Notes: generated by a model from the sequence alone, not told the origin. Positions 147-52,218 are shown, counted from the first letter of the stretch. The stretch is DNA of 64,000 nucleotides from Bacilli bacterium (GCA_028693275.1 JAQUVS010000003.1:6046-70045); one strand, 5' to 3'. A program made the numbers and translations.

Positions 147-1145
147 ATGAAGAAAATACTACCTTTGCTACTTATAACTACTTTATTCGTAACTGGTTGT
201 GGTGTAGCAAAACTTGAAAATGGTCAAGATGCTGTTGTTAAATTAAAAGGAGAAGATATCTCTGCTGATAAGCTATATGATCAATTAAAAGATAAGTATG
301 CAGTTAATGTACTTATTGATATGATTGATAAGCAAATTCTTGCTAAGGAATATAGTTCTGATGAAGTAAAAGAAGAAATAGAATCAAAAGTTCAATCACA
401 AATTGATAGTTGGTTAGAAAATTTCGGAGATGAAGCTACTTTATTAAAACAAACTTCTAGTTACTTTGGTGTAAGTACTATGGATGGATTAAGAGAATAT
501 CTTAATTTACAATTCTTAAGAACTAAGGCTGCTGAAGATTATGCTAAAACATTAGTAACTGATAAAGAAATTAAAAATTTCTATGATGAAACTATCTTTG
601 GAGACATTGAAGCAAGTCATATTTTAATTAAAGCAGATACTAAAGATGGTATGACTGATGAAGAAACTAAAGCTGCTGAAGCTAAAGCTTTAAAAGAAGC
701 TAAATCAATAATCGAAAAATTAAATAAAGGTGAAGATTTTGCTAAGTTAGCTAAAAAATATAGCGATGATGAAGGAAGCAAAGAAGATGGTGGAGAATTA
801 GGTTACTTCACACATGGTAAAATGGTTGCTGAATTCGAAGAAGCTGCAGTTGATTTAAAAGTTGGTAAATATACTACTGAACCTGTTAAGAGTTCATTTG
901 GTTACCATATAATTCTTAAAACTAATCAAAAAGAAAAAGCTTCTTTAGATAAAGTTAAGAGTGATATAATTGATGAAATTTCAGCTGATAAAATAGAAGC
1001 TGATTCTACTATAAATATTGATGCTATGGTTGAATTAAGAAAAGAATACAAAATTAGTTTTGAAGATTCTGACTTAAAGAAAAAGTATGAAGCATATATA
1101 GAAAGTTCAATTTCTAGTGCTAAAGAAACAGACGCAGCAAAATAA
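147..1145 (+). CDS. prsA: PrsA-like foldase lipoprotein (parvulin-type peptidyl-prolyl isomerase)
   Basis: RBS AAAGGAGGA ends 6 nt before ATG at 147; signal peptide plus lipobox LFVTGC; length and composition typical of PrsA; ORF-track start at 78 lacks RBS. Confidence 0.7.
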   Translation: MKKILPLLLITTLFVTGCGVAKLENGQDAVVKLKGEDISADKLYDQLKDKYAVNVLIDMIDKQILAKEYSSDEVKEEIESKVQSQIDSWLENFGDEATLLKQTSSYFGVSTMDGLREYLNLQFLRTKAAEDYAKTLVTDKEIKNFYDETIFGDIEASHILIKADTKDGMTDEETKAAEAKALKEAKSIIEKLNKGEDFAKLAKKYSDDEGSKEDGGELGYFTHGKMVAEFEEAAVDLKVGKYTTEPVKSSFGYHIILKTNQKEKASLDKVKSDIIDEISADKIEADSTINIDAMVELRKEYKISFEDSDLKKKYEAYIESSISSAKETDAAK

Positions 1146-1149
1146 AAAA

Positions 1150-1180
1150 ATAAGTACTTCATTAGAAGTACTTTTTATTT
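1150..1180. terminator. Bidirectional rho-independent terminator between prsA and recX
   Basis: hairpin AAGTACTTC-atta-GAAGTACTT flanked by A-run upstream and T-run downstream. Confidence 0.6.
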
Positions 1181-1912
1181 ATCATAAAAACCATTTTGAT
1201 ACATTTTTTGTTTTATTTTATATTCAAGTTCTTTATCTTTATATTTTTTTGATAATTTTTTTAATTGTTTTTCATATTCTTTTTTATATAAATCTTCATC
1301 ATTATAATTAAATTTTTCTAATGATGAAATTATCTTTTCTTTTTCATAACCTAAGTTTAGTAAGTACATTTCTATTTTTCTTTTTAAGATAACTCCTGAT
1401 TTATTTTTATTAATTTTTATCATTTTATTTATTATCTTGTCAATTCTTTCATATTGTAATTCATCAGAATAAACTTTAATCTTTTCAAGTATATTATCTT
1501 CAGAAAAACCATTTTGTTTTAATTCTTGTTTTATTTTTTCAGGGCCATATGAACTTAAATTTATTTTATCATGAATAAATGCTTCAATATAATGATTGTT
1601 ATTTAAGTACCCATTATTTTCTAGAATACTTGTAACTTCTTCAATATCTATATTGGAATATTCCTTTTTCTTTAGATATTCAGATATTTCTTTTTTACTT
1701 CTCATTTTTATAGAAATATACTTTAGAGCTACTTCATAAATTTCATATTTTTTGTTTTTTTCTATTAATTCATAAAGTACTTCATTTGATATTTCTTTAT
1801 TTATTATTAGTTTATATTCTAAAATTAAATCTTCATGTAGTCTATACTTTTTTTCATCAATATTTAGAATATACATTCCATTTCTACCTTTAGTGAATTT
1901 CTTGATTGTCAT
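1175..1912 (-). CDS. recX: RecX-family regulatory protein
   Basis: 245 aa with three-repeat helical architecture and RecX-like motifs (RSKKEISEYLKKK...GYLNNNHYIEAFI...GPEKIKQELKQNG). Confidence 0.6.
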   Translation of the reverse strand: MTIKKFTKGRNGMYILNIDEKKYRLHEDLILEYKLIINKEISNEVLYELIEKNKKYEIYEVALKYISIKMRSKKEISEYLKKKEYSNIDIEEVTSILENNGYLNNNHYIEAFIHDKINLSSYGPEKIKQELKQNGFSEDNILEKIKVYSDELQYERIDKIINKMIKINKNKSGVILKRKIEMYLLNLGYEKEKIISSLEKFNYNDEDLYKKEYEKQLKKLSKKYKDKELEYKIKQKMYQNGFYDK

Positions 1913-1963
1913 TAAATCACCTTCTTATAATTATATTATAACTAAAAAAAGATTAATATCAAA

Positions 1964-2164
1964 TTAATCTTTTTTTAAAGTCAATAAACCTTCTGAAACT
2001 TCTTCAAGAGCACGTCCAATATTTTTTCTTGATACATATTTATTAAGAGGCATTTGATAGTGAGATGTTCTTGACATTTCTTTACTTCTCTTGCTTGCAA
2101 TATGAACTAGTCTATATTTAGAGTCTATTGTATTCAACATTTTATCTATTGATGGATATATCAC
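1964..2164 (-). CDS. rpoZ: DNA-directed RNA polymerase subunit omega
   Basis: 66 aa; conserved omega motif DSKYRLVHIASKRSKEM. Confidence 0.8.
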   Translation of the reverse strand: MIYPSIDKMLNTIDSKYRLVHIASKRSKEMSRTSHYQMPLNKYVSRKNIGRALEEVSEGLLTLKKD

Positions 2165-2251
2165 TGTATCACCCTTCCCTATATTACTAGGATATATTTA
2201 TTTTTATTAATAGGCAAGGTATTTACAGTAATTAGACAATTATTTACATAA

Positions 2252-3559
2252 TTAAAATGGAAGTTTCATATTTCCGTTTGTAAATTGTTTCATCATTTTT
2301 TTCATTTGTTCAAATTGATTTAATAATTTATTTACATCTTGAACAGTTTGACCTGAACCCGATGCAATTCTTTGTTTTCTTGTTGCTTTTATCATGTCTG
2401 GATTTCTTCTTTCTTTAGGCGTCATTGATAATATTATAGCTTCTATATGAGCTAATTGTTTAGGATCTATATTTACATTTGATAAACCCATTTTTGATGC
2501 TCCAGGAATTAATTTAATTAAGTTTTCTAAAGGACCAAGTTTTTTTATTTGTTTCATATTCTTTAGAAAGTCTTCTAAATCAAATTTACCACTTTGCATT
2601 CTTTTTGCAGAATTCATAGCTTCTTTTTCATCTATTACTTCCTGAGCTTTTTCAACAAGAGATATAACATCTCCCATACCTATTATTCTTCCAGCCATTC
2701 TTTCAGGATCGAAACTTTCTAATCCATCCATTTTTTCACTTACACCAATAAATTTAATTGGTACATTTGTTAAGTGTCTTACTGATAAAGCAACTCCACC
2801 TCTTGTATCTCCGTCTAACTTAGTAAGAATAACACCAGTTAATGCTAAATTAGAATTGAAACCTTCAATAACATTAATAGCATCTTGTCCCATCATTGAA
2901 TCAATTACTAATAATTTTTCTTGAATAGAAAATTTTTCTTCAATCCCTTTTAGTTCATCCATTAAGTTTTCATCTATATGAAGTCTACCGGCAGTATCAA
3001 TTAATATATAGTTATGTCCGTTTTCCTTAGCATATTTTAAAGCATTTTCTATTATTTCAAGAGGATTTTTCTTTCCTTCTTCATAAACTTCTATACCTAA
3101 TTCTTTACCAATTTGTCTTAATTGATCAATTGCTGCTGGTCTATATATATCACATGCTACTAGTAAAGGTTTCTTACCATGTTTTTTTCTTAAGTAGTTA
3201 GCTAATTTACCTATAGTTGTTGTTTTACCACTTCCTTGAAGACCAACTAACATAAGCATAGCTGGATTCCCATCTGTGTTTATATATTTTTGTTCACCAC
3301 CAAGTAAGTTTGCTAATTCATCTTTTACGATTTTAACAAACATATCACCTGGTTTAATACTTTTGGCTACTTCTTCACCTAAAGCTTTTTCTTTTACGTT
3401 ATTTGTGAATTCTTTTACTACTTTATAGTTAACATCTGCTTCTAATAGAGCTAATCTTATTTCTCTCATCATTTCGCTGATGTTTTCTTCACTTATTTTT
3501 CCATATCCTTTGATTTTATCAATTGCGCTTTGCAATCTATCTCCTAGTGTTTCAAACAT
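2252..3559 (-). CDS. ffh: Signal recognition particle protein Ffh
   Basis: N domain MFETLGDRLQ..., GTPase motifs GLQGSGKTTT/DTAGR/TKLDG, Met-rich M domain at C-terminus. Confidence 0.95.
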   Translation of the reverse strand: MFETLGDRLQSAIDKIKGYGKISEENISEMMREIRLALLEADVNYKVVKEFTNNVKEKALGEEVAKSIKPGDMFVKIVKDELANLLGGEQKYINTDGNPAMLMLVGLQGSGKTTTIGKLANYLRKKHGKKPLLVACDIYRPAAIDQLRQIGKELGIEVYEEGKKNPLEIIENALKYAKENGHNYILIDTAGRLHIDENLMDELKGIEEKFSIQEKLLVIDSMMGQDAINVIEGFNSNLALTGVILTKLDGDTRGGVALSVRHLTNVPIKFIGVSEKMDGLESFDPERMAGRIIGMGDVISLVEKAQEVIDEKEAMNSAKRMQSGKFDLEDFLKNMKQIKKLGPLENLIKLIPGASKMGLSNVNIDPKQLAHIEAIILSMTPKERRNPDMIKATRKQRIASGSGQTVQDVNKLLNQFEQMKKMMKQFTNGNMKLPF

Positions 3560-3580
3560 AACAAAACCTCCTGTTGATTT

Positions 3581-5341
3581 TTATTTTTCTATATTTGTCC
3601 ATTTACTAACGACATTACAATTACTGCTTTGAGGAGCAGGATTAGGCATTTCTACTTTTACTATCATTGGTATTTTAAAAGCATTACCAAAGATTAAACA
3701 ATTACCTATTTGTAATGATTTTTGCTTTTCAATTATCTCATCAGTGATATTTGGAATCATTTTTGTAATATATTCTATATCTCTTGGATGACTCATTTTA
3801 AATATAATGAAATTAGAACATTGTGATAATACTGTTTCTGATAAATCTACTGGTCTTTGAGATATTAGATTTAATATTATACCATACTTTCTTCCTTCTT
3901 TTGATACTCTATCAAAAATATTATATCCAAATAGTCTTTCATCATCATCTTTTTGTACATATCTATGAGCTTCTTCTAAAAATAGATTAAAAGGTACACT
4001 TCCTCTTTCTATTTTTTTAGAAAAATCAAATAATAAATTAGTGAATATTTTTACTATTGCCTTAGCAAAGGCATCATCTATATCTTCTAAATTAATATTT
4101 AATATCTGATATTTTTTTCCATCTTTTATTATAAGATTAGATAGAAATTGATCTAATTTACAAAATTCTCTATAATCAAAAAATTTAGCATTTGGACCTA
4201 TTACTAATTCATGTAATTTTACTTTTAATGATATTGCATCTGCGTAAACATTATTATTACGTAACCAACCTTCTGAAATTAAAGCAAAGTTCAATGATTT
4301 TTCTAAATCTTTTAAATCAAATAATTTTTTTTGTTTTGGTTCATATGAAGATAATTCTGGAGATATATGATTATTTATATATTCAGTTAATAAAACTCTT
4401 TCAGCAAATTGATCTGTTGAGTCTATTAGAAAACATTCATGTAATTTTCTAGTATATCCTATTCCGTGAACTACTGCATTCATATTAAAGAAATCGGTAG
4501 GACAAATATTTAAGATAGAAAATATTTCATCTCTTTTACTTGATGTTCCTTGATTAGAATATAAAACTGTTAATATTGCTGTTGCTATTAAATGATTCTT
4601 ATATTTTTCTGATATATCATCTGATTGAGCAAAAATATTAGCTAATTTTAAAGTTTTTTCTATTATAGATATTTGAGTATGAGTATTAGCTGACAATATT
4701 AATGCTAAATCATTTACTCCAAGAAGCCATAAAGGTATTCTTAATAGATCTCCCTTATATGGACTATTTTCGTTAGTTGTTATAAAACGATAATTATAAT
4801 TAGGATTTATTTCATTTATTCTAGAGAATGAAGCATTATATTCACCTGTTGAATCAAATATTATAAAATTAGATCTATATGGAATAAAATTTGGAATATA
4901 AAATACATTTTGTAATAATCTTGCTACTCCACATGATTTACCACTACCAGTATTCCCAAAAATAGCCATATGATTACTAAATAAATCATTCATACTTGAA
5001 TATACTACTTTGTCATTATAGAACGGACTTTCCCCCATATTAATGAATCCATATTTGTTTTCCCCAACAATTAGTGGAAGTTCATTTTCTTCTAGTAATC
5101 TTATTGTTGCATCAGGATTTGGCTTTCTAAGTATTCCTCCAACAAAATTGTTATTAATAATTTCACCTAATAATCTTATTGTTGCTTCGTCTTTATTACA
5201 TTCTACTACTTCTCCAAGTAGTTTCTTACTATTGTCTTCAATTACTAAAGGCATGCTCATTATTTCAGGTTTTATTTCATTATTTTCAATTAAAGTTACT
5301 TTTATGCTTTTTTCAGCAATATTAATTATTTTACCAAACAT
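3581..5341 (-). CDS. HerA-like (DUF87) P-loop ATPase, paralog 2
   Basis: HAS-barrel-like N-terminus; Walker A FGNTGSGKSCGVAR; Walker B FLEEAHRY; ISQRP arginine-finger motif; about 55-60% identical to neighbour 5350..7113; RBS GGAGGA overlaps the neighbour's stop. Confidence 0.7.
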   Translation of the reverse strand: MFGKIINIAEKSIKVTLIENNEIKPEIMSMPLVIEDNSKKLLGEVVECNKDEATIRLLGEIINNNFVGGILRKPNPDATIRLLEENELPLIVGENKYGFINMGESPFYNDKVVYSSMNDLFSNHMAIFGNTGSGKSCGVARLLQNVFYIPNFIPYRSNFIIFDSTGEYNASFSRINEINPNYNYRFITTNENSPYKGDLLRIPLWLLGVNDLALILSANTHTQISIIEKTLKLANIFAQSDDISEKYKNHLIATAILTVLYSNQGTSSKRDEIFSILNICPTDFFNMNAVVHGIGYTRKLHECFLIDSTDQFAERVLLTEYINNHISPELSSYEPKQKKLFDLKDLEKSLNFALISEGWLRNNNVYADAISLKVKLHELVIGPNAKFFDYREFCKLDQFLSNLIIKDGKKYQILNINLEDIDDAFAKAIVKIFTNLLFDFSKKIERGSVPFNLFLEEAHRYVQKDDDERLFGYNIFDRVSKEGRKYGIILNLISQRPVDLSETVLSQCSNFIIFKMSHPRDIEYITKMIPNITDEIIEKQKSLQIGNCLIFGNAFKIPMIVKVEMPNPAPQSSNCNVVSKWTNIEK

Positions 5342-5349
5342 AAATCCTC

Positions 5350-7113
5350 CTACTCCTTAGCTATCCATCTGTTATAAACATCAGCATTACTACTTTCAGG
5401 TAATGGATCTGGTAATTCCATTCTAATAATTGTTGGAATTCTAAATGCCTTACCAAAAGCAACACAATTTCCTATTTGCAGAACTTTTTGTTTATCTACA
5501 ATTTCAGAATTTATGTTTGGAACCATTTTCTTTATGTATTCAACATCTCTAGGATGGTTCATTTTAAAAATTAAGAAATTAGAACATTGTGATATAACTG
5601 TATCTGAAATTTCTACTGGTCTTTGTGAGACAAAAGTCATTATTACTCCGTACTTTCTTCCTTCTTTCGAAATTCTTTCAAAGATATTATATCCTAATAA
5701 TTCTTTATCTCTATCTTCTTGTATATATCTATGTGATTCTTCTATTACAATATTAAATGGAATAGATCCTCTATTTTCTAGGTTTTTAGAAAATTCAAAT
5801 GTTATTCTACAAAATATTTTTACTAAAACTTTAGCAAAAGAATCATCTACATCTTCTAAGTTAAAATTTATTATTTGGAATTTTCTTCCATCTTCTGAAA
5901 ACAACATATCATGTAAGTATTCTCTTTTATCTATAAATTTGTCCAATTTAAAGAATCTAGAATATCCACCTATTACTAAATTATGAAGTTTAACTTTAAG
6001 AGTAATAGCATCACCATATGTATTCTTATTTCTTAGCCATCCTTCACTAATAAGAGTAAAGTTAAGGGCATCTTCCAAGTCTTCTAATGTAAAATAATGT
6101 AATCCTTTAGGTTCAAAAGTATCAAATTCTTCTTTTATGAATGAACCTATATATCTTGTTATTAATACACTTTCTGAAAACTGACCATTGGAATCAATGG
6201 CAAAACATTCTCTAAAATTTCTACTATAACCCACTCCTGTGATATCAGTTTCCAAATTAAGGTTATATGTATGGCATGATTCTAATATAGTAAAAATATC
6301 ATTTCTTTTACTCGCTGATGTTTCATTTGAATAAAGAATGCTCATTAAAGCTTTTGCGATAAGATGATCTTTAAAATCTTCTGTTTTTACATCAGGGGAA
6401 GCAAAGATATTAACTAATTGAACTGTTCTTTCAATTAGAGGAATTTGTGAGTGATTTGTTGCATTTAATAAAAGAGCAATATCATCTATACTTAATAACC
6501 AAAGAGGTATTTTTAGTTTTTCTACATCATCAACTATTTCACTACTTGTTGAATATAAATTATAGTGGTAATTTGGATTTATTTCATTTATTTTTGAAAA
6601 AGCTGTTTTATATTCTCCAGTTGAATCAAAAATTATAAAATTTGCATTAAATGGCAAAAACTCTGCTGTTTTAAAAACATTTTGGATTATTCTTGCTACA
6701 CCACATGATTTACCACTACCAGTATTTCCAAAAATAGCCATATGATTACTAAATAAATCATTTACCCTAGCTCTAATTGGATAACCATTATAAATCGGAC
6801 TATATCCTAGTAAAATTGAGTCTTTTGAATTTTCTGCAACTAAAAGAGAAAATTCTTCACTTGTTATTATTCTTACATTGGAGTTTAAACTTGGTTTTCT
6901 AATTATTCCACCTACAAAACCATTATTTACAATTTCTCCAAGAAATCTGGTACCTACAGTGTTTTCATCCATGTCTTCTATTTCGGCTATTATTTTTTTT
7001 TCTTCATCTTCAAACAAAACATGTAAATTCATTAAATCTTTATTTAATGAAAGAGCATCTGATATTTTTACTTTTGCACCAGTATCACTAATATATGTTA
7101 TTTTATCAAACAT
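5350..7113 (-). CDS. HerA-like (DUF87) P-loop ATPase, paralog 1
   Basis: Walker A FGNTGSGKSCGVAR; Walker B VIEESHRY; VSQRP motif; RBS AGGGGAA; starts 18 nt after ylxM stop. Confidence 0.7.
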   Translation of the reverse strand: MFDKITYISDTGAKVKISDALSLNKDLMNLHVLFEDEEKKIIAEIEDMDENTVGTRFLGEIVNNGFVGGIIRKPSLNSNVRIITSEEFSLLVAENSKDSILLGYSPIYNGYPIRARVNDLFSNHMAIFGNTGSGKSCGVARIIQNVFKTAEFLPFNANFIIFDSTGEYKTAFSKINEINPNYHYNLYSTSSEIVDDVEKLKIPLWLLSIDDIALLLNATNHSQIPLIERTVQLVNIFASPDVKTEDFKDHLIAKALMSILYSNETSASKRNDIFTILESCHTYNLNLETDITGVGYSRNFRECFAIDSNGQFSESVLITRYIGSFIKEEFDTFEPKGLHYFTLEDLEDALNFTLISEGWLRNKNTYGDAITLKVKLHNLVIGGYSRFFKLDKFIDKREYLHDMLFSEDGRKFQIINFNLEDVDDSFAKVLVKIFCRITFEFSKNLENRGSIPFNIVIEESHRYIQEDRDKELLGYNIFERISKEGRKYGVIMTFVSQRPVEISDTVISQCSNFLIFKMNHPRDVEYIKKMVPNINSEIVDKQKVLQIGNCVAFGKAFRIPTIIRMELPDPLPESSNADVYNRWIAKE

Positions 7114-7130
7114 AATAATTCCCCTATTCT

Positions 7131-7421
7131 TTAAATTAATTCTTCTATTTTATTCTTTTTTTCTTCTTCTATATTTTTAATAATTTTCATTATCTTTTCT
7201 TTTTTTTCTAGGAGTTTTAATTTCTCTTCATAGAAAAAAAGTTTTTCTTCTACACTCTTAATCTGTAAGTGTACTGCATTTCTACTTATTGAATTATTCT
7301 CAGCTATTTCCCCTAATGATAAATCATCAAAGTAATAGTTTTCAAAATATTCTCTTTGCTTATTTGTAAATAATTCTGAATAGTAATCATAAAGTTGATT
7401 TAGATATATTTTTTTATCCAT
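7131..7421 (-). CDS. ylxM: YlxM/UPF0122 small helix-turn-helix protein of the SRP operon
   Basis: 96 aa; sigma-70 region-4-like HTH LSLGEIAENNSISRNAVHLQIK; sits between ftsY and ffh as in Bacillus. Confidence 0.75.
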   Translation of the reverse strand: MDKKIYLNQLYDYYSELFTNKQREYFENYYFDDLSLGEIAENNSISRNAVHLQIKSVEEKLFFYEEKLKLLEKKEKIMKIIKNIEEEKKNKIEELI

Positions 7422-7429
7422 TTTATCAC

Positions 7430-8422
7430 CTACATCATTTCTTTAAAGAGACTATAAATATATTTTTCTATATCGAATGGTTGTAAATCTTCTTTTGTTT
7501 CACCAAGACCAATATATTTAACTGGAATATTTACTTCTTCTTTGATTGCTAAAACTATTCCACCTTTTGCTGTTCCATCTAATTTTGTTAAAACTATACC
7601 AGTTATATTTGTTATTTCTTTAAAACTTTTTGCTTGACTGATACCATTTTGACCAGTTGTAGCATCTATTACTAGTAATGTTTCATGAGGAGCATTAGGT
7701 ATTTTTGTTCCTATTACTTTGTTTATTTTTTCTAGTTCCTTCATTAGATTTGTTTTATTTTGTAATCTTCCAGCTGTATCTATTAAAATTATATCTGCAT
7801 TTTCTTTTATTGCATTATCTATTCCTTTAAAGACTACTGCTGCAGGATCTACTCCTTCAGTTTCCCCTGTAAATAATGTATTTGTTCTATTTGCCCATTC
7901 TTCTAATTGAGCTGTTGCTCCTGCTCTAAAAGTATCTCCGGCAACAAGCATAACTTTTTTCCCTTGTTCTTTAAATTTCCATGCCATTTTACCAATTGTT
8001 GTTGTCTTGCCTACTCCGTTAACTCCTACAAATAAAATTACTGTTGGTCCTTCATTATTTATATTTATTTTATTAACGATTACTTCGTCATTTACATAAA
8101 TTATAAACAACTCATCAACTATTATTTCTTTTAATTCAACAGGATCTGTTATGTGTTCCTTCTTACATCTATTTTTAATTCTTTCTATAAAATCCATTAC
8201 AGTTTTAACGCCTATATCAGACATTATCAATATTTCTTCTAGTTCTAGAAAATAATCTTCTGTAATTTTATCATATCTGTTTGTTAGATTTATCAGCTTG
8301 GATACAAAATTTTCTCTAGTTTTTGATAATCCCTTATCATAAATATTTATATCTTCTTTTTCTTTTGTTGTTATTGTATTTTCTTTTGAAAAAACATTTT
8401 TAATTTTATCAAATAATCCCAT
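7430..8422 (-). CDS. ftsY: SRP receptor FtsY (short form, no acidic A domain)
   Basis: NG domain with GVNGVGKTTTIGK, DTAGR, TKLDG; N-terminal amphipathic MGLFDKIKN. Confidence 0.9.
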   Translation of the reverse strand: MGLFDKIKNVFSKENTITTKEKEDINIYDKGLSKTRENFVSKLINLTNRYDKITEDYFLELEEILIMSDIGVKTVMDFIERIKNRCKKEHITDPVELKEIIVDELFIIYVNDEVIVNKININNEGPTVILFVGVNGVGKTTTIGKMAWKFKEQGKKVMLVAGDTFRAGATAQLEEWANRTNTLFTGETEGVDPAAVVFKGIDNAIKENADIILIDTAGRLQNKTNLMKELEKINKVIGTKIPNAPHETLLVIDATTGQNGISQAKSFKEITNITGIVLTKLDGTAKGGIVLAIKEEVNIPVKYIGLGETKEDLQPFDIEKYIYSLFKEMM

Positions 8423-8520
8423 ATTCCCTCCTGTTATCTTTAATTAATTGTTAATACTTTTATTATATCAAATATTATTTTAATTTACTATAAAACTAAA
8501 TTATTTTATTGAAGTTAAAT

Positions 8521-8553
8521 AAAAAAAGTAATCCTTTTTTTAGAATTACTTTT
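8521..8553 (-). terminator. Rho-independent terminator downstream of 8552..9238
   Basis: minus-strand hairpin AAGTAATTCT-aaaaaa-AGGATTACTT followed by T7. Confidence 0.5.
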
Positions 8554-9238
8554 ATATTATTTCTTTTGCCTTATGTTTAATTTTTGTTTTTTTTGAACTT
8601 AATCTATCTAAATCAATTATTTCACCTGTTGTAAAATCAACTAGAGGAATAGTTAAAGCATTGATTGATAGTAGCTCACTTACTTTTTTTATGATATCTA
8701 TATCATAATGAGATTCTACTTCATCTCTTGTCCAATTATAATCTTTTCTACTTTTAAAGGCTATTGCTTTTATATATCCCAAAGGAATTCTTTTATAAAC
8801 ATTAATAGTTCCATCTTTTCCTTTATGATGTGGTAACTCAAATAATATTTTTTCATCTATTACTAGTATTAATTCTTGAAGAAAACATTTATATGGATTT
8901 TGAATTGTTTCTTTTTTATCTTGATGGATACTTCTTTTTGGATGTTCTACTAAAGAAATAAAATCATATTCACTTTTACATGATGATAATTCTAAATTAA
9001 TATTTTTATTTTGACTTTTTATTTCATTATATGATAATATTTCTCCACTTTCAAAAATACTATTAAGTTTAAAGAAACTATTAACTAGTGGTATTTTTTG
9101 ATTTAATTCTATGTGAGATATAGTTTCTACTCCGTTTATTTTTACTGTTTGACTATTAAAATAAATCTTCTTATTTGTTATTCCGTGAAATAGATAATTT
9201 CTTAAATCTTTACTTGAATCTAAATATACTTTTTCCAT
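8552..9238 (-). CDS. Hypothetical protein (no recognisable domain)
   Basis: 228-aa ORF with its own terminator; no motif recognised by eye. Confidence 0.45.
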   Translation of the reverse strand: MEKVYLDSSKDLRNYLFHGITNKKIYFNSQTVKINGVETISHIELNQKIPLVNSFFKLNSIFESGEILSYNEIKSQNKNINLELSSCKSEYDFISLVEHPKRSIHQDKKETIQNPYKCFLQELILVIDEKILFELPHHKGKDGTINVYKRIPLGYIKAIAFKSRKDYNWTRDEVESHYDIDIIKKVSELLSINALTIPLVDFTTGEIIDLDRLSSKKTKIKHKAKEII

Positions 9239-9312
9239 ATTTGCTCCTTATTGGTGTATATTATAAAATACTAATTGTCTTTTAGCAATAGTCTTTTTAT
9301 AAATAATAATGG

Positions 9313-9348
9313 ACAAAAGTCCTTTTTTAGAGTATAATTTTATCGGTT
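9313..9348 (+). promoter_or_regulatory. Putative sigma-A promoter of rnj (TGGACA-17-TATAAT)
   Basis: -35 TGGACA, 17-nt spacer, -10 TATAAT about 40 nt upstream of rnj RBS. Confidence 0.4.
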
Positions 9349-9389
9349 AGTTCTTTTTGTATTAAAAATTAACTTTGAAAGGAGAAAAT

Positions 9390-11066
9390 ATGAAATTTAA
9401 TAAACCGGATGAAACTAAGTTTATAGTTCTTGGAGGTTTAGGTGAAGTTGGAAAAAACATGTATTGTGTAATGCATGAAGATGAAATAGTTATTATAGAT
9501 GCGGGGATTTCTTTCCCTGATGAAAGTGTATATGGGGTTGATTATGTTATACCTGATTATACTTTCTTAAAACAAAATCAAGATAAAATAAAAGCTTTAG
9601 TAATAACACATGGTCACGAGGACCATATAGGAGGGATTCCTTTTTTATTACAAAGTTTATCTATTCCAGCTATTTATGCGCCTAGACAAGCTAAAGAATT
9701 AATAGCTTTAAAACTAGAAGATAGAAATATTCGTTATGATTTTTTAAATGTATATGACGATACTACTATTTTAAATTTTAAGAATATTAAAATAGAATTT
9801 TTTAAAACAACCCATTCTATACCTGATTCTCATGGTATTTCAATTACTACAAAGAATGGAACAATTGTAACAACAGGAGACTTTAAGTTTGACTTTACTC
9901 CAATTGGTCCAATGGCTGATTTACACAAAATGGCAGAAATTGGGAAAAGAGGAGTAGATTTATTAATTAGTGATTCTACTAATGCCCTTAATGAAGGAAT
10001 TAGTACTAGTGAATCAAAAGTTGATGATGCTTTAAATGCTTTCTTTGATGATTATAAAGATAGTAGAATAATTATTGCTACTTTTGCTTCTAATATATAT
10101 AGATTGAAACATATTGTTGAAACTTGTCACAAATATGGAAGAAAAATTTGTGTATTTGGTAGAAGTATGGAAAATAACTTGAAGATATCTACAGGTGGCG
10201 GATATATTGAGCATGGAGATATATTAATTAATGCTGATGAAGCTAATAATTTGAAGCCAGGAGAAGTTTGTTTACTTTGCACTGGTTCTCAAGGGGAACC
10301 ACTAGCTGCTTTATCTAGAATATCTGATGGAACTCATAGACAAATAAAATTGAGACCTGATGATGTTGTAGTTTTCTCATCTTCACCAATTCCAGGTAAT
10401 GCTCTTAGTATTTCTAAGACAATAAATAAGCTTTACCTAAAGGGTGTTAAAGTATTTACTGCTAATAGCAATAATGATTTACATACTTCTGGTCATGCAA
10501 ACCAAGATGAATTGAAATTAATGATCAGACTTCTAATGCCTAAATTTGTAATGCCGTTCCATGGTGATTATAGAATGTTAAAGAAACATGCTGATGTAGC
10601 TATGGATTGTGGAGTTCCTAAGGAAAATACTTTTGTTATTGATAATGGTAATGTTCTTACATTATACAATCATGTAGTTACAAAAGATGAAGAAAAGGTT
10701 CAAGCAGGGGAAGTTTATATCGATGGAAACCGTATTGGTGAAATTGGTGGTGCTGTTTTAAAAGATAGAAAGATTATGTCAAACGATGGTATACTTGTTG
10801 TTATTGCTAACGTTGATATTGTAAATAGAAAAATATTAATAAAACCAAATATTACTACTAGAGGATTTGTACTTGTAAATGAAAATGAAGAACTAATCAA
10901 GAATATTGAAAAAATGTCTTATAATATTATTAATGATAGATTAACAAAATCTCATGATTCTATAATAGATATTAAATCAAAAGTTGCAAGTGAATTATCC
11001 CCTTATATAGAAAATATTACGGGAAGAAAACCAATTATTTCAACAATGATTGTGGAAATAAAGTAA
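9390..11066 (+). CDS. rnjA: Ribonuclease J (metallo-beta-lactamase/beta-CASP)
   Basis: HGHEDHIGG motif; beta-CASP region; RBS AAAGGAG before ATG at 9390. Confidence 0.9.
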   Translation: MKFNKPDETKFIVLGGLGEVGKNMYCVMHEDEIVIIDAGISFPDESVYGVDYVIPDYTFLKQNQDKIKALVITHGHEDHIGGIPFLLQSLSIPAIYAPRQAKELIALKLEDRNIRYDFLNVYDDTTILNFKNIKIEFFKTTHSIPDSHGISITTKNGTIVTTGDFKFDFTPIGPMADLHKMAEIGKRGVDLLISDSTNALNEGISTSESKVDDALNAFFDDYKDSRIIIATFASNIYRLKHIVETCHKYGRKICVFGRSMENNLKISTGGGYIEHGDILINADEANNLKPGEVCLLCTGSQGEPLAALSRISDGTHRQIKLRPDDVVVFSSSPIPGNALSISKTINKLYLKGVKVFTANSNNDLHTSGHANQDELKLMIRLLMPKFVMPFHGDYRMLKKHADVAMDCGVPKENTFVIDNGNVLTLYNHVVTKDEEKVQAGEVYIDGNRIGEIGGAVLKDRKIMSNDGILVVIANVDIVNRKILIKPNITTRGFVLVNENEELIKNIEKMSYNIINDRLTKSHDSIIDIKSKVASELSPYIENITGRKPIISTMIVEIK

Positions 11067-13500: not shown

Positions 13501-14742
13501 CTATAATCCTGAAGTTCTTGATGAATATGTTCCACCATAATGATTAAATATACCTAATGTTCTTGAAATTGAATAACCTGATGCATTGGTATTTTCTATT
13601 TTTCCACCATACTGATTTAATATTGCTGTTGCAACATTATTAGAAAATATTGTTGATGCATATGCTGTGTAATAATTTCCACTATAAATGTTCATTATAC
13701 CTGAATTTGTTATGATTGGACTTATAGCATCATTTCTATATACTTCAGTGTCATATAAATTCATAACTGACTTACCATTGTTACTATTCCAAATTGCAAC
13801 TGCAGAAGTTGTTGTGTTAGTTACTGTTACATCTTTTAAAGTCATTATAGAGTAATTTACTAAACTTTTTGTATATGTTGCAGTTACTGTATTTGTAATT
13901 ACTCCAGGCCCCTCAATAATCATATCACCATAATTCGTAATAGCATCCATTCCAACACCATCGATTTTGTGACCATTAAGTTTTAAAGTAATTATTTTCC
14001 CATTACTAACAGTAGCATTACCATTGTAATCTTTAGTCATATATATAATTGTTTCTTTATCTAATTCAGCAGCTGAAAAAGCATCATACATGGAATTATA
14101 ACCTACATTATTGACTTTAAAACTAAAAGTAGTTGGAGTAAAATCGATATTACAATTTTCATTTGAGTATACATCATCATGATTTAGTTTCCACTCTTTT
14201 GAGTTCCATGATTGGCCTATTTCAGATGAACAAGTTATTGTTTTTACATCATATAAATTACCATCTGGAGCAGTAGCTACAGCACTACTATCAATACTAT
14301 AAGTAATTAATACTTGTCTTTTACCTGTATCATTACAATCTGCTACAAATTCTCCTTCAAATAATTCGGGATTTTTATCTTCGTTTACGGTTACTATATT
14401 GTCACCATATTTTAAGACATAATCGACAACTTCATTATTTTTAACATAAACGCAACTATTTCCCTCTGGAGCTTCTCCCGTAATTGATACGGTCACCTCT
14501 TGGTTAGATAAATCATTAAGGGTATAACTTCCATCGGCAATTATGGCGCTGTCGCCGTTACTTTCTATTAAATACAATTTATCATTTGTTGCTTTCACAT
14601 ATTCTCTAGCTGAAATTAATAATGATTTTAACTCAGCTCTCTTTACTGTGTTCATGATTTCAGGAATAGCTATTAACATTATTGTACCTAATATAACAAT
14701 TACACCTAATATTTCAATTAAAGTAAATCCCTTTTTATTCAT
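13501..14742 (-). CDS. Type IV prepilin-like protein with large C-terminal beta-helix-like domain
   Basis: Class III signal MNKKG|FTLIEILGVIV (Glu at +5); C-terminal approx 180 aa of N/T/S-rich repeats typical of a parallel beta-helix. Confidence 0.6.
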   Translation of the reverse strand: MNKKGFTLIEILGVIVILGTIMLIAIPEIMNTVKRAELKSLLISAREYVKATNDKLYLIESNGDSAIIADGSYTLNDLSNQEVTVSITGEAPEGNSCVYVKNNEVVDYVLKYGDNIVTVNEDKNPELFEGEFVADCNDTGKRQVLITYSIDSSAVATAPDGNLYDVKTITCSSEIGQSWNSKEWKLNHDDVYSNENCNIDFTPTTFSFKVNNVGYNSMYDAFSAAELDKETIIYMTKDYNGNATVSNGKIITLKLNGHKIDGVGMDAITNYGDMIIEGPGVITNTVTATYTKSLVNYSIMTLKDVTVTNTTTSAVAIWNSNNGKSVMNLYDTEVYRNDAISPIITNSGIMNIYSGNYYTAYASTIFSNNVATAILNQYGGKIENTNASGYSISRTLGIFNHYGGTYSSRTSGL

Positions 14743-17099: not shown

Positions 17100-17450
17100 A
17101 ATACTTTATAAGCCATGTTCTGTTCCTATTTCTAGGCGACAAACATCTATCTACCAATTTCTTGGTCCCTAACTTAGTTATTAGTTCCTTCGTTAGAGCT
17201 CCCCTACCATAATTTGGGTTTCTCACTCGTGGGGTTTACCGCGTTTCAATTAACCGTTTCCGATTAATATCGTCTCTGTGGCACTTTACAATTACTTTAA
17301 TCATATCCTAAGACTTAGATTATTTCATCGCCGTTAGCAAAGCTACCCAAGGTTATTTTTTCCCTTGGCACGAACATTAAAAACATTCCAGTTTTTGTGA
17401 GCATGGACTTTCCTCTATATTACTTGAATACAGCGTTTGTCAAAGTATTA
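17100..17450 (-). ncRNA. rnpB: RNase P RNA, type B
   Basis: minus strand carries GAGGAAAGTCCATGCTC (P4 5' strand) and ACAGAACATGGCTTAT (P4 3' strand); P1 pairing AATACTTT/AAAGTATT; located next to gpsB as in B. subtilis. Confidence 0.85.
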
Positions 17451-35651: not shown

Positions 35652-35860
35652 ATAATAAAAAAAGACTATTCATCACATAAGGACGAATAATCGCGGTACC
35701 ACCTTAATTCATAGAAATATCCTATGCACTTGATACTATAAAGCGTTACCTTTTAAGCTCCAAAAATGTAATTCACAATTATTCCATGTTTATTTTCACC
35801 TACCATAAACTCTCTATGTATGAATTATAATTACTACTATTTTTCTTCATTGCTAATGAT
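35652..35860 (-). promoter_or_regulatory. T-box riboswitch leader of tyrS (Tyr specifier UAC)
   Basis: minus strand shows AGAGAG box, specifier ...GAAUUACAUU..., T-box AATTAAGGTGGTACCGCG, and terminator ATTATTCGTCC-ttat-GTGATGAATA followed by T7. Confidence 0.8.
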
Positions 35861-48800: not shown

Positions 48801-51635
48801 CTATTTAGCCACTATGTTTACTATTCTATTTTTAATTACTATTACTTTTACTATTTCTTTTTCTTCTAAATGTTTTTGTACATTTGAGTCACTTAAAGCT
48901 TTTTCTTTTATTTCTTCTTCAGTATCATTAATTGCACAAATAATAGTTCCTCTTAATTTACCATTTACTTGAACAGCTATTTCTTTTTCTTCATCTATTA
49001 TTTTTTCTTCATCATATGTTGGCCATGCTGATTCACATAAAGGATTTCCTAAATGATTAATTTCATTTAATTCTTCTGTTATATGAGGAGCTATAGGATT
49101 TAATAAAGTAAGTAGTGTTCTATAGTCTTTTTGACTTATTTCTTCTTTATCAGTCATTTCATTAGTTAATATCATTAAAGCAGAAACTGCTGTGTTAAAT
49201 TTCATATTATCTATGTCTTCTGTGACTTTTTTTATTGTTTTATTAATTATCTTTTCTAAAGAAGATGAGTATTCATCTGAGTTATTTAATTTGTCTTGTA
49301 ATTTAATAACTTTATCTAAGAATCTTCTACAACCATTTAGACTTTGTTCGCTCCAAGCAGCTTCTTTTTCATAGTCTCCTATAAACATTTCATAGCATCT
49401 TAGTGCATCTGCTCCTTGTTTTTTTACAACGTCATCGGGATTTATAACATTACCCTTAGACTTAGACATTTTTTCTCCACCTTCACCAAGAATCATTCCG
49501 TGGGCTACTCTTGTCTTAAAAGGTTCTTTGTAAGGAACTAATCCAATGTTATATAGGAATTGATTCCAGAAACGAGCATATAATAAGTGTCTTGTAGCAT
49601 GTTCCATTCCACCATTATACCAATCAAGTTGTCCCCAATAATTCAATGCTTCTTTTGAAACAAATTCTTTATCATTTTTAGGATCCATGTATCTTAACCA
49701 GTACCAAGAAGATCCAGCCCAGTTAGGCATTGTATCTGTTTCTCTTTTAGCTGGTTTTCCGCATTTAGGACATGTTGTATTTACCCAACTTTCTATTTTA
49801 GCAAGTGGACTTTCACCATCATCTGTTGGTTCATACTCAGCTACATCTGGTAATAAAACAGGAAGGTCTTCTTCTTTAACTGGAACCCATCCACATTCAT
49901 CACAACATACTAAAGGTATTGGTTCTCCCCAGAATCTTTGTCTTGTAAATATCCAATCTTGTAATTTATAATTTGTTTTCTTATAACCGATTCCTTCTTT
50001 TTCTAAATACTCTAACATTTTATTTATAGATTCTTTTTTATTTGTTAAACCATTTAAGATACCAGAATTAACCATTTTGCCGTCTCCAGCATAATAATTA
50101 TTTTCTGCTAGTAAATTTCTGAATGTAGTAATATGTAATTCATCTTTTACTTCTTTTTCTATTATTTCTCTTGATACCCATTCAATTTCAAATTTACCTT
50201 TTTCGTCTTCATCAAGATTATTTGTTTCTTTCTTATCAGAAATAAGTTTAAATAATAATCCAATACTTTCTATTTCATAAGCTTTATTCTTATTATAAGC
50301 AAAATAATGATGATTAATTGGACTAATTTCTTTGATAAATCTAATATCTGTGTATCCAGTTTCTTCTTTTATTTCTCTTACAGCTGTTTCTAATGCAGTC
50401 TCATTATCTTTTCTTGTTCCCCCAATAAATAATCTTCCACCTAATTCTTTCCAATTAAGAGTTAAATATTTATTATTTTCTTCGTCATAAATAACTGCTA
50501 CTATACTATTTTTTTGTTCTTCATTTTCTCTTTGTTCACCAGTTATTTGTTCTATAACAGGGATTATTTCTATATTAAATTTACTTGCAAATTCATAGTC
50601 TCTATCATCATGTGCTGGAACAGCCATAATAGCTCCTGTTCCATAGTTCATCATAACATAATCTGAAATATAAATAGGAATTTCTTTATTTGTAATAGGA
50701 TTAATAGCTGTTAATCCATCAATTCTCACACCAGTTTTTTCTTTTGTCATATTTAATCTTTCAAATTCTGTTTTGAAATTTGTTTTTTCTCTATAATCTA
50801 TTATTTCATTCATGTTGTTTATTATTCCACTATATAGGTCTATATATGGATGTTCTGGGGCTATTACCATGAAAGTAACTCCATATAAAGTATCTGGTCT
50901 TGTTGTATATACTTTTAATTTTTCATCTATTTCTTTAATTTTAAAATCTACTTCTGCTCCTGTTGATTTTCCTATCCAATTGATTTGAGCAGTTTTTATT
51001 CTTTCTTGGAAGTCAGTCTCATCTAAACCTGTTATTAAGTCTTCTGCATAGTCTGACATTCTTAGTACCCATTGGTCTTTTTCTTTTTGAACTACAACTG
51101 ATCCACATCTTTCACAAGTTCCTCCGCTAGAATCTTCATTTGATAAACCTGTTTTACAATTAGGGCACCAGTTTATACTTTTTTTAGCTTTATATGCCAT
51201 ATCGTGTTCATAAAATTTAATAAATTGCCATTGAGTCCATTTATAGTATTCTGGATCAGTAGTAGAAAATTCTCTACTCCAATCAAATGAAATACCAAGA
51301 TCTTTTATTTGTCCCTTAAATGTTTTTATGTTTTCAGCTACTGCTTCTTTAGGATGAATATGATTTTTAATAGCATATTGTTCTGCTGGAGCCCCAAAAG
51401 CATCCCATCCCATTGGAAATAATACATTATATCCCATCATTCTTTTCTTTCTTGCCATTGTATCAATTGCTGTATAGCTTCTTACATGACCAACATGTAA
51501 TCCAGATCCAGATGGATATGGAAATTCTACAAGATAAAAATATTTTTCCTTATCACTATTATTTTTTGCAACAAAAGTATTATTATCATCCCAATATTTT
51601 TGCCATTTTTTTTCTATATCATTTATTGTCATCAT
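48801..51635 (-). CDS. leuS: Leucyl-tRNA synthetase carrying an inserted Nudix hydrolase domain
   Basis: HVGH and KMSKS motifs, CP1 editing domain; about 150 extra residues including a perfect Nudix box between ...IPVIEQI and AGDGKMVNSG; terminator hairpin AGTGGCTAAATAGCCACT + T-run at the 3' end. Confidence 0.95.
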   Translation of the reverse strand: MMTINDIEKKWQKYWDDNNTFVAKNNSDKEKYFYLVEFPYPSGSGLHVGHVRSYTAIDTMARKKRMMGYNVLFPMGWDAFGAPAEQYAIKNHIHPKEAVAENIKTFKGQIKDLGISFDWSREFSTTDPEYYKWTQWQFIKFYEHDMAYKAKKSINWCPNCKTGLSNEDSSGGTCERCGSVVVQKEKDQWVLRMSDYAEDLITGLDETDFQERIKTAQINWIGKSTGAEVDFKIKEIDEKLKVYTTRPDTLYGVTFMVIAPEHPYIDLYSGIINNMNEIIDYREKTNFKTEFERLNMTKEKTGVRIDGLTAINPITNKEIPIYISDYVMMNYGTGAIMAVPAHDDRDYEFASKFNIEIIPVIEQITGEQRENEEQKNSIVAVIYDEENNKYLTLNWKELGGRLFIGGTRKDNETALETAVREIKEETGYTDIRFIKEISPINHHYFAYNKNKAYEIESIGLLFKLISDKKETNNLDEDEKGKFEIEWVSREIIEKEVKDELHITTFRNLLAENNYYAGDGKMVNSGILNGLTNKKESINKMLEYLEKEGIGYKKTNYKLQDWIFTRQRFWGEPIPLVCCDECGWVPVKEEDLPVLLPDVAEYEPTDDGESPLAKIESWVNTTCPKCGKPAKRETDTMPNWAGSSWYWLRYMDPKNDKEFVSKEALNYWGQLDWYNGGMEHATRHLLYARFWNQFLYNIGLVPYKEPFKTRVAHGMILGEGGEKMSKSKGNVINPDDVVKKQGADALRCYEMFIGDYEKEAAWSEQSLNGCRRFLDKVIKLQDKLNNSDEYSSSLEKIINKTIKKVTEDIDNMKFNTAVSALMILTNEMTDKEEISQKDYRTLLTLLNPIAPHITEELNEINHLGNPLCESAWPTYDEEKIIDEEKEIAVQVNGKLRGTIICAINDTEEEIKEKALSDSNVQKHLEEKEIVKVIVIKNRIVNIVAK

Positions 51636-51993
51636 TTTTATCATTTCTCTCTTTCTTTATTATGTTTGCAAGGATGTTAAACGAAACTAAAATTATAGGT
51701 ATTAATATTACAAATCCTACTATCATTTGTAGTACAGGATTTTCTATTACAGAAATAATAGTTACTACGATAGATACATCTAAAGCAACCATTTTTGCTA
51801 TTTTTTCCATTACTTTTTTACCATTAATCTTAGATAAATCTAGTTTATATTTGTATACTAAAAACTGTAATTCTATAGGTGTTTTCTTTTTATCACTCTT
51901 TTTATATTTTCTAACATAAAGTATATAGTATAAAAAATATACACTTAAAAATGTGAGTAAGAATAAAATACCTTTGTCATATAAATCTTTCAT
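51619..51993 (-). CDS. Small two-TM membrane protein encoded between the leuS T-box leader and leuS
   Basis: RBS GGAGGAGAGG 7 nt before ATG 51993; two hydrophobic helices with a basic loop; 3' end overlaps the leuS start. Confidence 0.45.
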   Translation of the reverse strand: MKDLYDKGILFLLTFLSVYFLYYILYVRKYKKSDKKKTPIELQFLVYKYKLDLSKINGKKVMEKIAKMVALDVSIVVTIISVIENPVLQMIVGFVILIPIILVSFNILANIIKKERNDKNDDNK

Positions 51994-52014: not shown

Positions 52015-52211
52015 AAAAGATTATTCATCACATAAGGACGAATAATCGCGGTACCACCTTAATTCATAGAAATATTTTCTATGCACTTAAATCTTTAACG
52101 CTGAAGAGCGTTGTACTTAATTAGAAAGCAAGTTCATATAATAATATTCTTAGTTTTCACCATCCACTAAGTCTCTTGAAATATTATTTATACTAATACT
52201 CTTTCAGGTAC
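52015..52211 (-). promoter_or_regulatory. T-box riboswitch leader of leuS (Leu specifier CUU)
   Basis: minus strand shows AGAGA box, specifier ...UGAACUUGC..., T-box AATTAAGGTGGTACCGCG, terminator identical to the tyrS leader, T-run. Confidence 0.8.
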
Positions 52212-52218
52212 AAGTTAT

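Follow-up and report, generated by a model that had tools for sequence, protein, structure and literature searches.

To our knowledge, bacterial HerA ATPases have been discussed almost only as scaffolds of abortive infection, in the SIR2-HerA and DUF4297-HerA systems, or as partners of NurA. Here we analyse two adjacent genes encoding HerA-family ATPases, HerA1 and HerA2, which lie between ylxM and ffh in a stretch of 64,000 nucleotides (the window) from a Bacilli bacterium (GCA_028693275.1, JAQUVS010000003.1:6046-70045). In the DUF4297-HerA system, hexameric HerA encircles and translocates double-stranded DNA (dsDNA), and its arginine finger, R455/K456 in structure 8xau, acts in trans (PMC11291478). 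SIR2-HerA shows ATPase and helicase activity; its structures show the effector bound to the HAS-barrel face of HerA, and in E. coli the HerA N-terminus is part of the Sir2 interface (PMC11472057). The archaeal and Deinococcus HerA-NurA system (4d2i) belongs to the same family and fold class as the window proteins, and its role is housekeeping DNA repair, not defence.

In the literature on HerA with ylxM, on RF39, on Tenericutes DUF87 proteins and on standalone SIR2-HerA, we found no description of the clade to which HerA1 and HerA2 belong. In a 2026 Sir2-HerA classification paper, the terms orphan, standalone, solo and housekeeping were all absent. The HerA family is known; what is new here is a HerA ATPase with a housekeeping-like evolutionary status. 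The reading we favour, to which we give about an even chance, is that the two proteins are lineage-fixed, housekeeping, paralogous ring ATPases of an effector-less HerA clade, serving chromosome maintenance and neither defence nor targeting by the signal recognition particle (SRP).

Two intact HerA-family ATPases

An initial annotation, made from the sequence alone, had placed HerA/DUF87 ATPases of 586 and 587 amino acids (aa) between ylxM and ffh. Open reading frames (ORFs) of these lengths were recovered on the minus strand, with the upstream paralog HerA1 (587 aa) at 5350..7113 and the downstream paralog HerA2 (586 aa) at 3581..5341. HerA1 and HerA2 share 53% identity over 583 aa, slightly less than the 55-60% first estimated. 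Both contain the Pfam DUF87 domain ("Helicase HerA, central domain"; 80.2 bits for HerA1 and 66.5 bits for HerA2, cut-off 23.2). PADLOC HerA models matched both over their full length, the best being PDLC04102 with 349 bits for HerA1 and 335 bits for HerA2 (E=1e-100 to 1e-105). The matching PDB sequences were the HerA subunits of DUF4297-HerA and SIR2-HerA complexes together with Sulfolobus HerA. The best of them was 9c1m (E=1e-44 for HerA1, E=6e-45 for HerA2), and Sulfolobus HerA 4d2i was matched at E=4e-25 to 5e-31. When an AlphaFold2 model of HerA1 was submitted to Foldseek, full-length matches were obtained with 8yhx, 8wld, 8xav and 9c1m (probability 1.0, TM 0.5-0.65). Residues 1-116 of this model are beta-rich, with nine strands and mean pLDDT values per 10-residue block mostly of ~63-87. 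As modelled, they are consistent with a HAS barrel, and together with the Foldseek matches to HerA they bear out the HAS-barrel-like N-terminus proposed at the outset. The DUF87 domain, the fold match and this N-terminus identify both genes as coding for HerA-family ATPases.

Both paralogs have intact Walker A and Walker B motifs, as had been noted. Walker A reads GNTGSGKS at aa 129-136 of each protein (minus strand, as for all motifs here). In HerA1 (6706..6729) it aligns with the P-loop of solved HerAs; in HerA2 it lies at 4934..4957. Walker B reads IVIEESH in HerA1 (aa 455-461, 5731..5751) and LFLEEAH in HerA2 (aa 453-459, 3965..3985). The segment SQRP, first taken for the arginine finger, is indeed present in both proteins, but R455/K456 of 8xau HerA align with EGRKYG of HerA2 and not with SQRP. 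This motif, identical in the two paralogs, carries the arginine/lysine finger pair and lies at aa 484-489 of HerA1 (5647..5664) and at aa 482-487 of HerA2 (3881..3898). We extracted 94 HerA proteins from the window and from related loci numbered L001-L086: EE[AS]HRY was found in all 94, and a G[NS][ST]GSGKS P-loop in 90. Residues ~244-400 of the window proteins, corresponding to the helical insertion, gave no sequence alignment with solved HerAs.

FtsK, SpoIIIE and SftA belong to the same ASCE FtsK-HerA superfamily and gave only weak matches in the P-loop region: FtsK_SpoIIIE (PF01580) scored 21.6 and 18.2 bits, against a cut-off of 24, over ~30-40 residues at the P-loop. Whereas FtsK has an N-terminal membrane domain, the N-terminus of the window HerA is a HAS barrel, and a gamma (KOPS-reading) domain was not detected. 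Matches to coupling proteins and VirB4 ATPases of type IV secretion systems (T4SS) were similarly restricted. TrwB_AAD_bind was marginally at its cut-off in HerA2 only (20.6 vs 20.5 bits) and T4SS-DNA_transf remained below its cut-off, both in the P-loop region; TrwB/VirB4-type matches spanned ~50 residues around the P-loop, at or below cut-off; and the VirB4-like model conju_CD1110 gave 20-21 bits against a cut-off of 325. No TrwB, VirD4 or VirB4 domain was found over most of the protein, nor any conjugation gene nearby in the window, nor any transmembrane or secretion-system domain in the HerA pair.

Comparison with described HerA systems

The SIR2-HerA proteins (Nezha; PDLC04102; 8wiv/8wld, 8j4u, 8su9) share with the window proteins the order HAS barrel, RecA-like ATPase with helical insertion and C-terminal segment, as well as the Walker A, Walker B and EGRKYG motifs. 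They give a full-length profile match and are among the top structural matches. However, SIR2-HerA has an adjacent or overlapping SIR2_2 gene, whereas the window pair is flanked by ylxM and ffh, and tblastn with two SIR2_2 proteins detected no SIR2 homolog in the 64-kb window. True members of PDLC04102, Bacteroidota HerAs with a SIR2_2 gene upstream that overlaps them, score 740-800 bits, against which the window pair (335-349 bits) stays below half. The anti-phage HerA models of NCBIfam, NF042944 and NF042943, gave 153-162 bits against cut-offs of 850 and 800, and the window proteins leave the first ~36 positions of the SIR2-type profile uncovered.

DUF4297-HerA (9c1m, 8xau, 8ziq) provided the best PDB sequence match and its arginine finger aligns with EGRKYG, but the identity with the window protein in Foldseek alignments was only ~20-24%, and the gene for the DUF4297 nuclease (PD-(D/E)xK) is not adjacent to the window pair, which adjoins ylxM and ffh instead. 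HerA-NurA is more distant from the window pair than the SIR2-type and DUF4297-type HerAs. The NCBIfam models for HerA of double-strand break (DSB) repair, NF040937 and NF040819, scored 88-134 bits, far below their equivalog cut-offs of 800 and 970, and no NurA, Mre11 or Rad50 gene adjoins the pair. The initial statement that no NurA, Sir2 or DUF4297 partner lies next to these genes thus held. The window pair is in the HerA family, yet it lacks what defines the SIR2-HerA, DUF4297-HerA and NurA-HerA systems.

The ftsY-ylxM-HerA arrangement is ancestral in a radiation of Bacilli

A scan of one genome per GTDB species returned at least 491 loci encoding relatives, and the best 80 were inspected. 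All 80 species-level loci carry a HerA ortholog. Among the 69 loci with enough flanking sequence, ylxM lies at most 400 nt upstream of HerA in 63, and ftsY, 62-76% identical to its window counterpart, is found upstream in 64. In 42 of 63 relatives, less than 400 nt separate the HerA stop from the start of ffh. HerA identity to the window ranges from 56 to 74%, with medians of 68% for ftsY, 56% for ylxM and 79% for ffh. Since HerA identity scales like that of these neighbours, we conclude that the gene has been inherited vertically under purifying selection. Neither a defence-island context nor a patchy distribution was observed; housekeeping synteny was found in 63-64 of the 69 loci.

Across a large radiation of small-genome, host-associated uncultured Bacilli, HerA of this clade is a core gene that is inherited vertically, occupies a single locus and lies inside housekeeping operons. 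In the lineage of the window this operon is ftsY-ylxM-herA-ffh; the order ftsY-ylxM-HerA(-ffh) is ancestral and is found almost throughout a large radiation of uncultured Bacilli. The pair is therefore not a recent insertion into the SRP operon, as the word "inserted" in the initial annotation implied. That annotation had itself named, as grounds for refuting its reading, an arrangement that is ubiquitous and ancestral in relatives and has a known function. Half of this applies: in the lineage the arrangement is indeed ubiquitous and ancestral, but no function is known.

Where ffh does not come next, the sampled loci have ArgRS, LDH, PFOR, pilin-like or surface proteins, or unknowns after HerA, and no recurring partner gene was seen among them. 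A conserved downstream effector was considered and rejected, as the genes following HerA in L004, L007, L017, L040, L054, L061, L064 and L082 (a 472-aa unknown, DUF5684, ArgRS, a SpaA/TED surface protein, PFOR, a PHP/ABC-like protein, LDH and unknowns) are mutually unrelated. We also considered an RNA gene, such as that for SRP RNA, in the 400-850 nt that seem to separate HerA from ffh in some relatives. Rfam found nothing there, and these apparent gaps correspond to disordered C-terminal extensions of HerA.

Related clades occupy other housekeeping operons

A search of 1.84 billion representative proteins yielded 4,519 clusters at E up to 1e-3, and metagenome loci were retrieved by a scan with an alignment as query. 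In a sister clade of ~43% identity (P0124 type), the order yqeG-yqeH-HerA was found in three lineages independent of one another, as well as in additional metagenome loci. In a clade of ~50% identity, jag-yidC-rnpA on the opposite strand is followed by HerA-dnaA-dnaN-comK-recF, with HerA directly upstream of dnaA. Other members of the effector-less clade are found in the arrangements AspRS-gatC-gatA-gatB-HerA, BipA-HerA, RNase III-HerA, TruA-HerA and pyrimidine nucleoside phosphorylase-HerA. The trait shared by these contexts is a position inside a conserved housekeeping operon, not an association with SRP. Because sister clades place HerA in such other operons, the SRP neighbourhood is a lineage-specific synteny and not a functional signature, and the membrane translocation function that had been read from it is undercut. 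The tblastn search with the two SIR2_2 proteins found no SIR2 homolog in these loci or in the other core loci.

A neighbour-joining tree rooted on Bacteroidota SIR2-HerA proteins grouped the effector-less HerAs in one clade (100/100 bootstraps) and left the SIR2-linked HerAs outside. Within the clade, subclades follow genomic context, with bootstrap values of 100 for the dnaA group, 80 for the yqeH group and 68 for the SRP group. SIR2-HerA is the nearest group outside, and the HerA subunits of SIR2-HerA anti-phage systems are the closest relatives of the effector-less clade. Proteins of an intermediate group (P0135 type) are 33-36% identical to HerA1 and score 500-586 bits on PDLC04102, and SIR2_2 lies directly upstream in all 17 of their metagenome loci with an upstream flank. 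For the Bacteroidota SIR2-HerA, SIR2_2 was present in both genomic loci (2/2), among restriction-modification, GmrSD, Mrr and Schlafen-like genes.

In loci of the dnaA-type clade, dnaN and recF are separated by a ComK-family gene, which comes directly downstream of HerA-dnaA-dnaN (L147, L149, L150, L153, L155, L156, L166-L168 and L171; for example L147:10878-11327). It is an unusual occupant of an origin-proximal dnaA operon.

Tandem duplication, second copies and C-terminal tails

Most species have one HerA. The gene was duplicated in tandem in the subclade of the window, and the pair occurs only in its nearest relatives (L004-L008); L072, L073 and L160 carry a HerA2-type copy alone. In the neighbour-joining tree the HerA1 and HerA2 clades each received 100% bootstrap support, while their mutual relation was unresolved (16%). 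The duplication appears from this node to be older than the subclade. Two close relatives that have the tandem pair, L004 and L007, carry one more gene between HerA2 and ffh. It encodes a 472-aa helical protein without family match in L004 (11552-12970) and an unrelated 505-aa DUF5684 protein in L007 (11625-13142), and neither has a counterpart in the window.

A different situation is seen in L054 (8001-15913), where the SRP-type copy is followed, 1 kb downstream, by a second, divergent HerA, 46% identical and of the yqeH-type clade. Between the copies are genes for two small proteins bearing prepilin-type N-terminal methylation motifs, and PFOR follows. This locus indicates that two core-type HerA lineages can share a genome.

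A C-terminal low-complexity tail of 35-360 aa, rich in N, S, P, V and T, is present in 49 of the 94 extracted HerA proteins (loci L009-L085) and absent from HerA1 and HerA2 of the window. The longest tailed HerA has 942 aa; another example is L034:7992-10499. In 28 of the 49 tails a PL[IV]x[LIV] or PEINI-like motif was found, usually ~7-13 residues from the C-terminus, and other tails end in an acidic ...DDxxPDFS tip resembling the SSB tail. The combination of tail and terminal motif suggests tethering to a partner and, by our own comparison, resembles the linker-plus-anchor logic of FtsK.

Organization of the locus

The minus-strand order in the window is ftsY, ylxM, HerA1, HerA2, ffh, rpoZ, recX. 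The run begins with ftsY (SRP receptor; 7430..8422; Pfam SRP54, 258 bits, and SRP54_N), followed by ylxM (UPF0122 helix-turn-helix protein; 7131..7421; Pfam UPF0122, 96 bits). Downstream of the HerA pair come ffh (SRP54; 2252..3559; Pfam SRP54, SRP_SPB and SRP54_N) and, at the end of the same-strand run, rpoZ (1964..2164; Pfam RNA_pol_Rpb6) and recX (1175..1912; Pfam RecX_HTH1/2); the rpoZ-recX order is matched in relatives. The gaps measure 17 nt between ylxM and HerA1, 8 nt between HerA1 and HerA2 and 21 nt between HerA2 and ffh, in agreement with the initial values except for the first, given as 18. A Shine-Dalgarno sequence overlaps the preceding stop at the HerA1/HerA2 junction only, and not at each junction as first described; at the other two it lies just past the stop. 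No intrinsic-terminator-like site was found on the minus strand from ftsY to recX. A bidirectional terminator-like hairpin at 1152..1173, between recX and prsA, is the sole one in the interval 1100-9500. The genes ftsY-ylxM-HerA1-HerA2-ffh are probably co-transcribed; the lack of a terminator fits this reading of the sequence but does not prove it. A promoter scan of this AT-rich DNA returned 62 sites where 62.4 were expected, and the GC content is uniform across the region at ~22-31%.

Directly upstream of ftsY, a 228-aa ORF (8552-9238, minus strand) has no Pfam or PADLOC match; at the same position relatives have an unannotated 319-aa ORF on the strand opposite to ftsY (L001:5413-6372). In many relatives an ORF of ~100-128 aa with hydrophobic stretches (for example L021:7311-7697) lies between ftsY and ylxM and overlaps the end of ftsY. 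The ftsY-ylxM spacer is 250-320 nt in many loci against 8 nt in the window. A protein of ~115 aa with a CotD-like match is encoded after ffh in L001 (11279-11626) and L004 (14430-14774), above the cut-off only in L004. This gene is absent from the window, where rpoZ comes after ffh.

Other features of the window

The window also encodes a class A penicillin-binding protein (PBP), EzrA, RecA and RNase Y/J, from which we deduce that the organism belongs to the Bacilli, has a cell wall and is low in GC. A gene for a 413-aa protein whose N-terminus carries a prepilin-type methylation motif (13501-14742, minus strand) lies between RNase Y and recA. The leucyl-tRNA synthetase (947 aa; 48801-51644, minus strand) contains a NUDIX match at residues 380-495 (40 bits, cut-off 21), inserted right after the editing domain. 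Only three Rfam matches at gathering thresholds were obtained in the window, all on the minus strand: RNase P RNA class B (17104-17448, 284 bits), a T-box leader upstream of the leucyl-tRNA synthetase (52031-52212) and a second T-box leader (35676-35859).

Discussion

The relationship with SIR2-HerA raises the question of defence. HerA1 and HerA2 could be a fixed anti-phage or genome-surveillance module, a stripped-down SIR2-HerA descendant whose (two-paralog) ring senses foreign or aberrant DNA and arrests growth alone or via an unlinked effector. The closest profile and structural relatives of the pair are all anti-phage HerAs, PDLC04102 aligns over the full length, and in the tree, whose root was placed on Bacteroidota SIR2-HerA, the effector-less clade does not include the SIR2-linked HerAs. 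We nevertheless regard this explanation as unlikely. The scores fall far under those of true members and under the anti-phage cut-offs, SIR2 is missing from the window and from the core loci, and the tight neighbours leave no space for another effector. The ~36 initial profile positions left uncovered bear on the same point, as the HerA N-terminus contributes to the Sir2 interface in E. coli (PMC11472057). In at least 80 species the gene occupies a single syntenic locus, in housekeeping operons and not in defence islands. A classical defence function, as put forward in the initial annotation, is thus improbable for a gene that is syntenic, vertically inherited, effector-less and outside defence islands, and the core-gene distribution leads us to favour a role in chromosome maintenance over abortive infection.

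One form of the housekeeping reading would make the pair a motor for DSB end resection, similar to archaeal and Deinococcus HerA-NurA, acting with an unlinked nuclease and compensating for missing AddAB/RecBCD. The homology to Sulfolobus HerA 4d2i and to the DSB-repair models of NCBIfam, the presence of recX and recA in the same neighbourhood and that of recF in the dnaA-type clade all speak for it. However, NurA, Mre11 and Rad50 are not adjacent in any locus with identified neighbours, the DSB-repair models score far below their cut-offs, and the protein is closer to SIR2-type than to NurA-type HerA, so that we hold this sub-case to be rather improbable. A motor linked to SRP or to the membrane, working with FtsY, YlxM and Ffh, for instance in substrate translocation at the membrane, appears very unlikely. 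The genes are tightly packed with ftsY-ylxM and ffh without intervening terminator, the ftsY-ylxM-HerA linkage is kept in 63-64 of 69 relatives, and three of the upstream neighbours found in the various clades, FtsY, YqeH and BipA, are GTPases associated with the ribosome. Yet translation genes dominate the housekeeping operons of small genomes, so that GTPase neighbours are expected by chance. Moreover, orthologs of the same clade adjoin dnaA-dnaN-recF, gatCAB, RNase III, TruA or nucleoside phosphorylase without SRP genes in their vicinity, about one in three SRP-type loci has ffh detached, and the search for a transmembrane or secretion-system domain found nothing beyond P-loop matches of the FtsK/T4SS type.

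For the reading we favour, chromosome maintenance by an effector-less HerA, a mechanism can be proposed by analogy with the solved systems. HerA1 and HerA2 each have a predicted HAS-barrel N-terminus and RecA-like core, with Walker A, Walker B and the presumed trans-acting arginine/lysine finger intact. Core HerA would form a hexameric, ATP-driven, sequence-independent dsDNA translocase or helicase (PMC11291478, PMC11472057), and HerA1 and HerA2 may form mixed rings. Such a motor could serve chromosome segregation or DNA clearance, or end processing in recombinational repair. Co-transcription with the SRP genes would provide constitutive expression and would not imply a shared pathway.

Several points weigh against this reading. 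The trees are neighbour-joining only, with support of just 68% for the SRP group and 16% for the HerA1/HerA2 node, and the synteny evidence rests on 80 of at least 491 genome matches. The AlphaFold2 model of HerA1 is of moderate quality, with a mean pLDDT of 67 and a P-loop region below 50, and the DNA-contacting residues R284/K287 of the 8xau insertion subdomain fall in the region that cannot be aligned by sequence. In the solved systems HerA on its own has weak ATPase activity, which its partner raises (PMC11472057); a HerA without effector may therefore depend on a partner encoded elsewhere.

Beyond this, we tentatively consider a more specific scenario, which is possible but doubtful: a motor of the SIR2-HerA lineage would have lost its effector and been domesticated as an essential, constitutive chromosome-handling ATPase across an order-level group of small-genome gut Bacilli, maybe replacing a function of the FtsK/SftA or AddAB type, with an obligate two-paralog hetero-hexamer in the subclade of the window.

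The pair carries a practical warning, as profile-based defence finders match it strongly (E=1e-100 to 1e-105) despite the absence of the partner that defines the system. An effector-less, syntenic clade in hundreds of uncultured gut species would exemplify the exchange of machinery between immunity and housekeeping; if the polarity is the reverse, and defence HerAs were recruited from the housekeeping clade, this would be equally notable. Such a clade would further point to a DNA motor, uncharacterised and probably important, in a lineage that is common in human and animal guts but lacks a cultured model.

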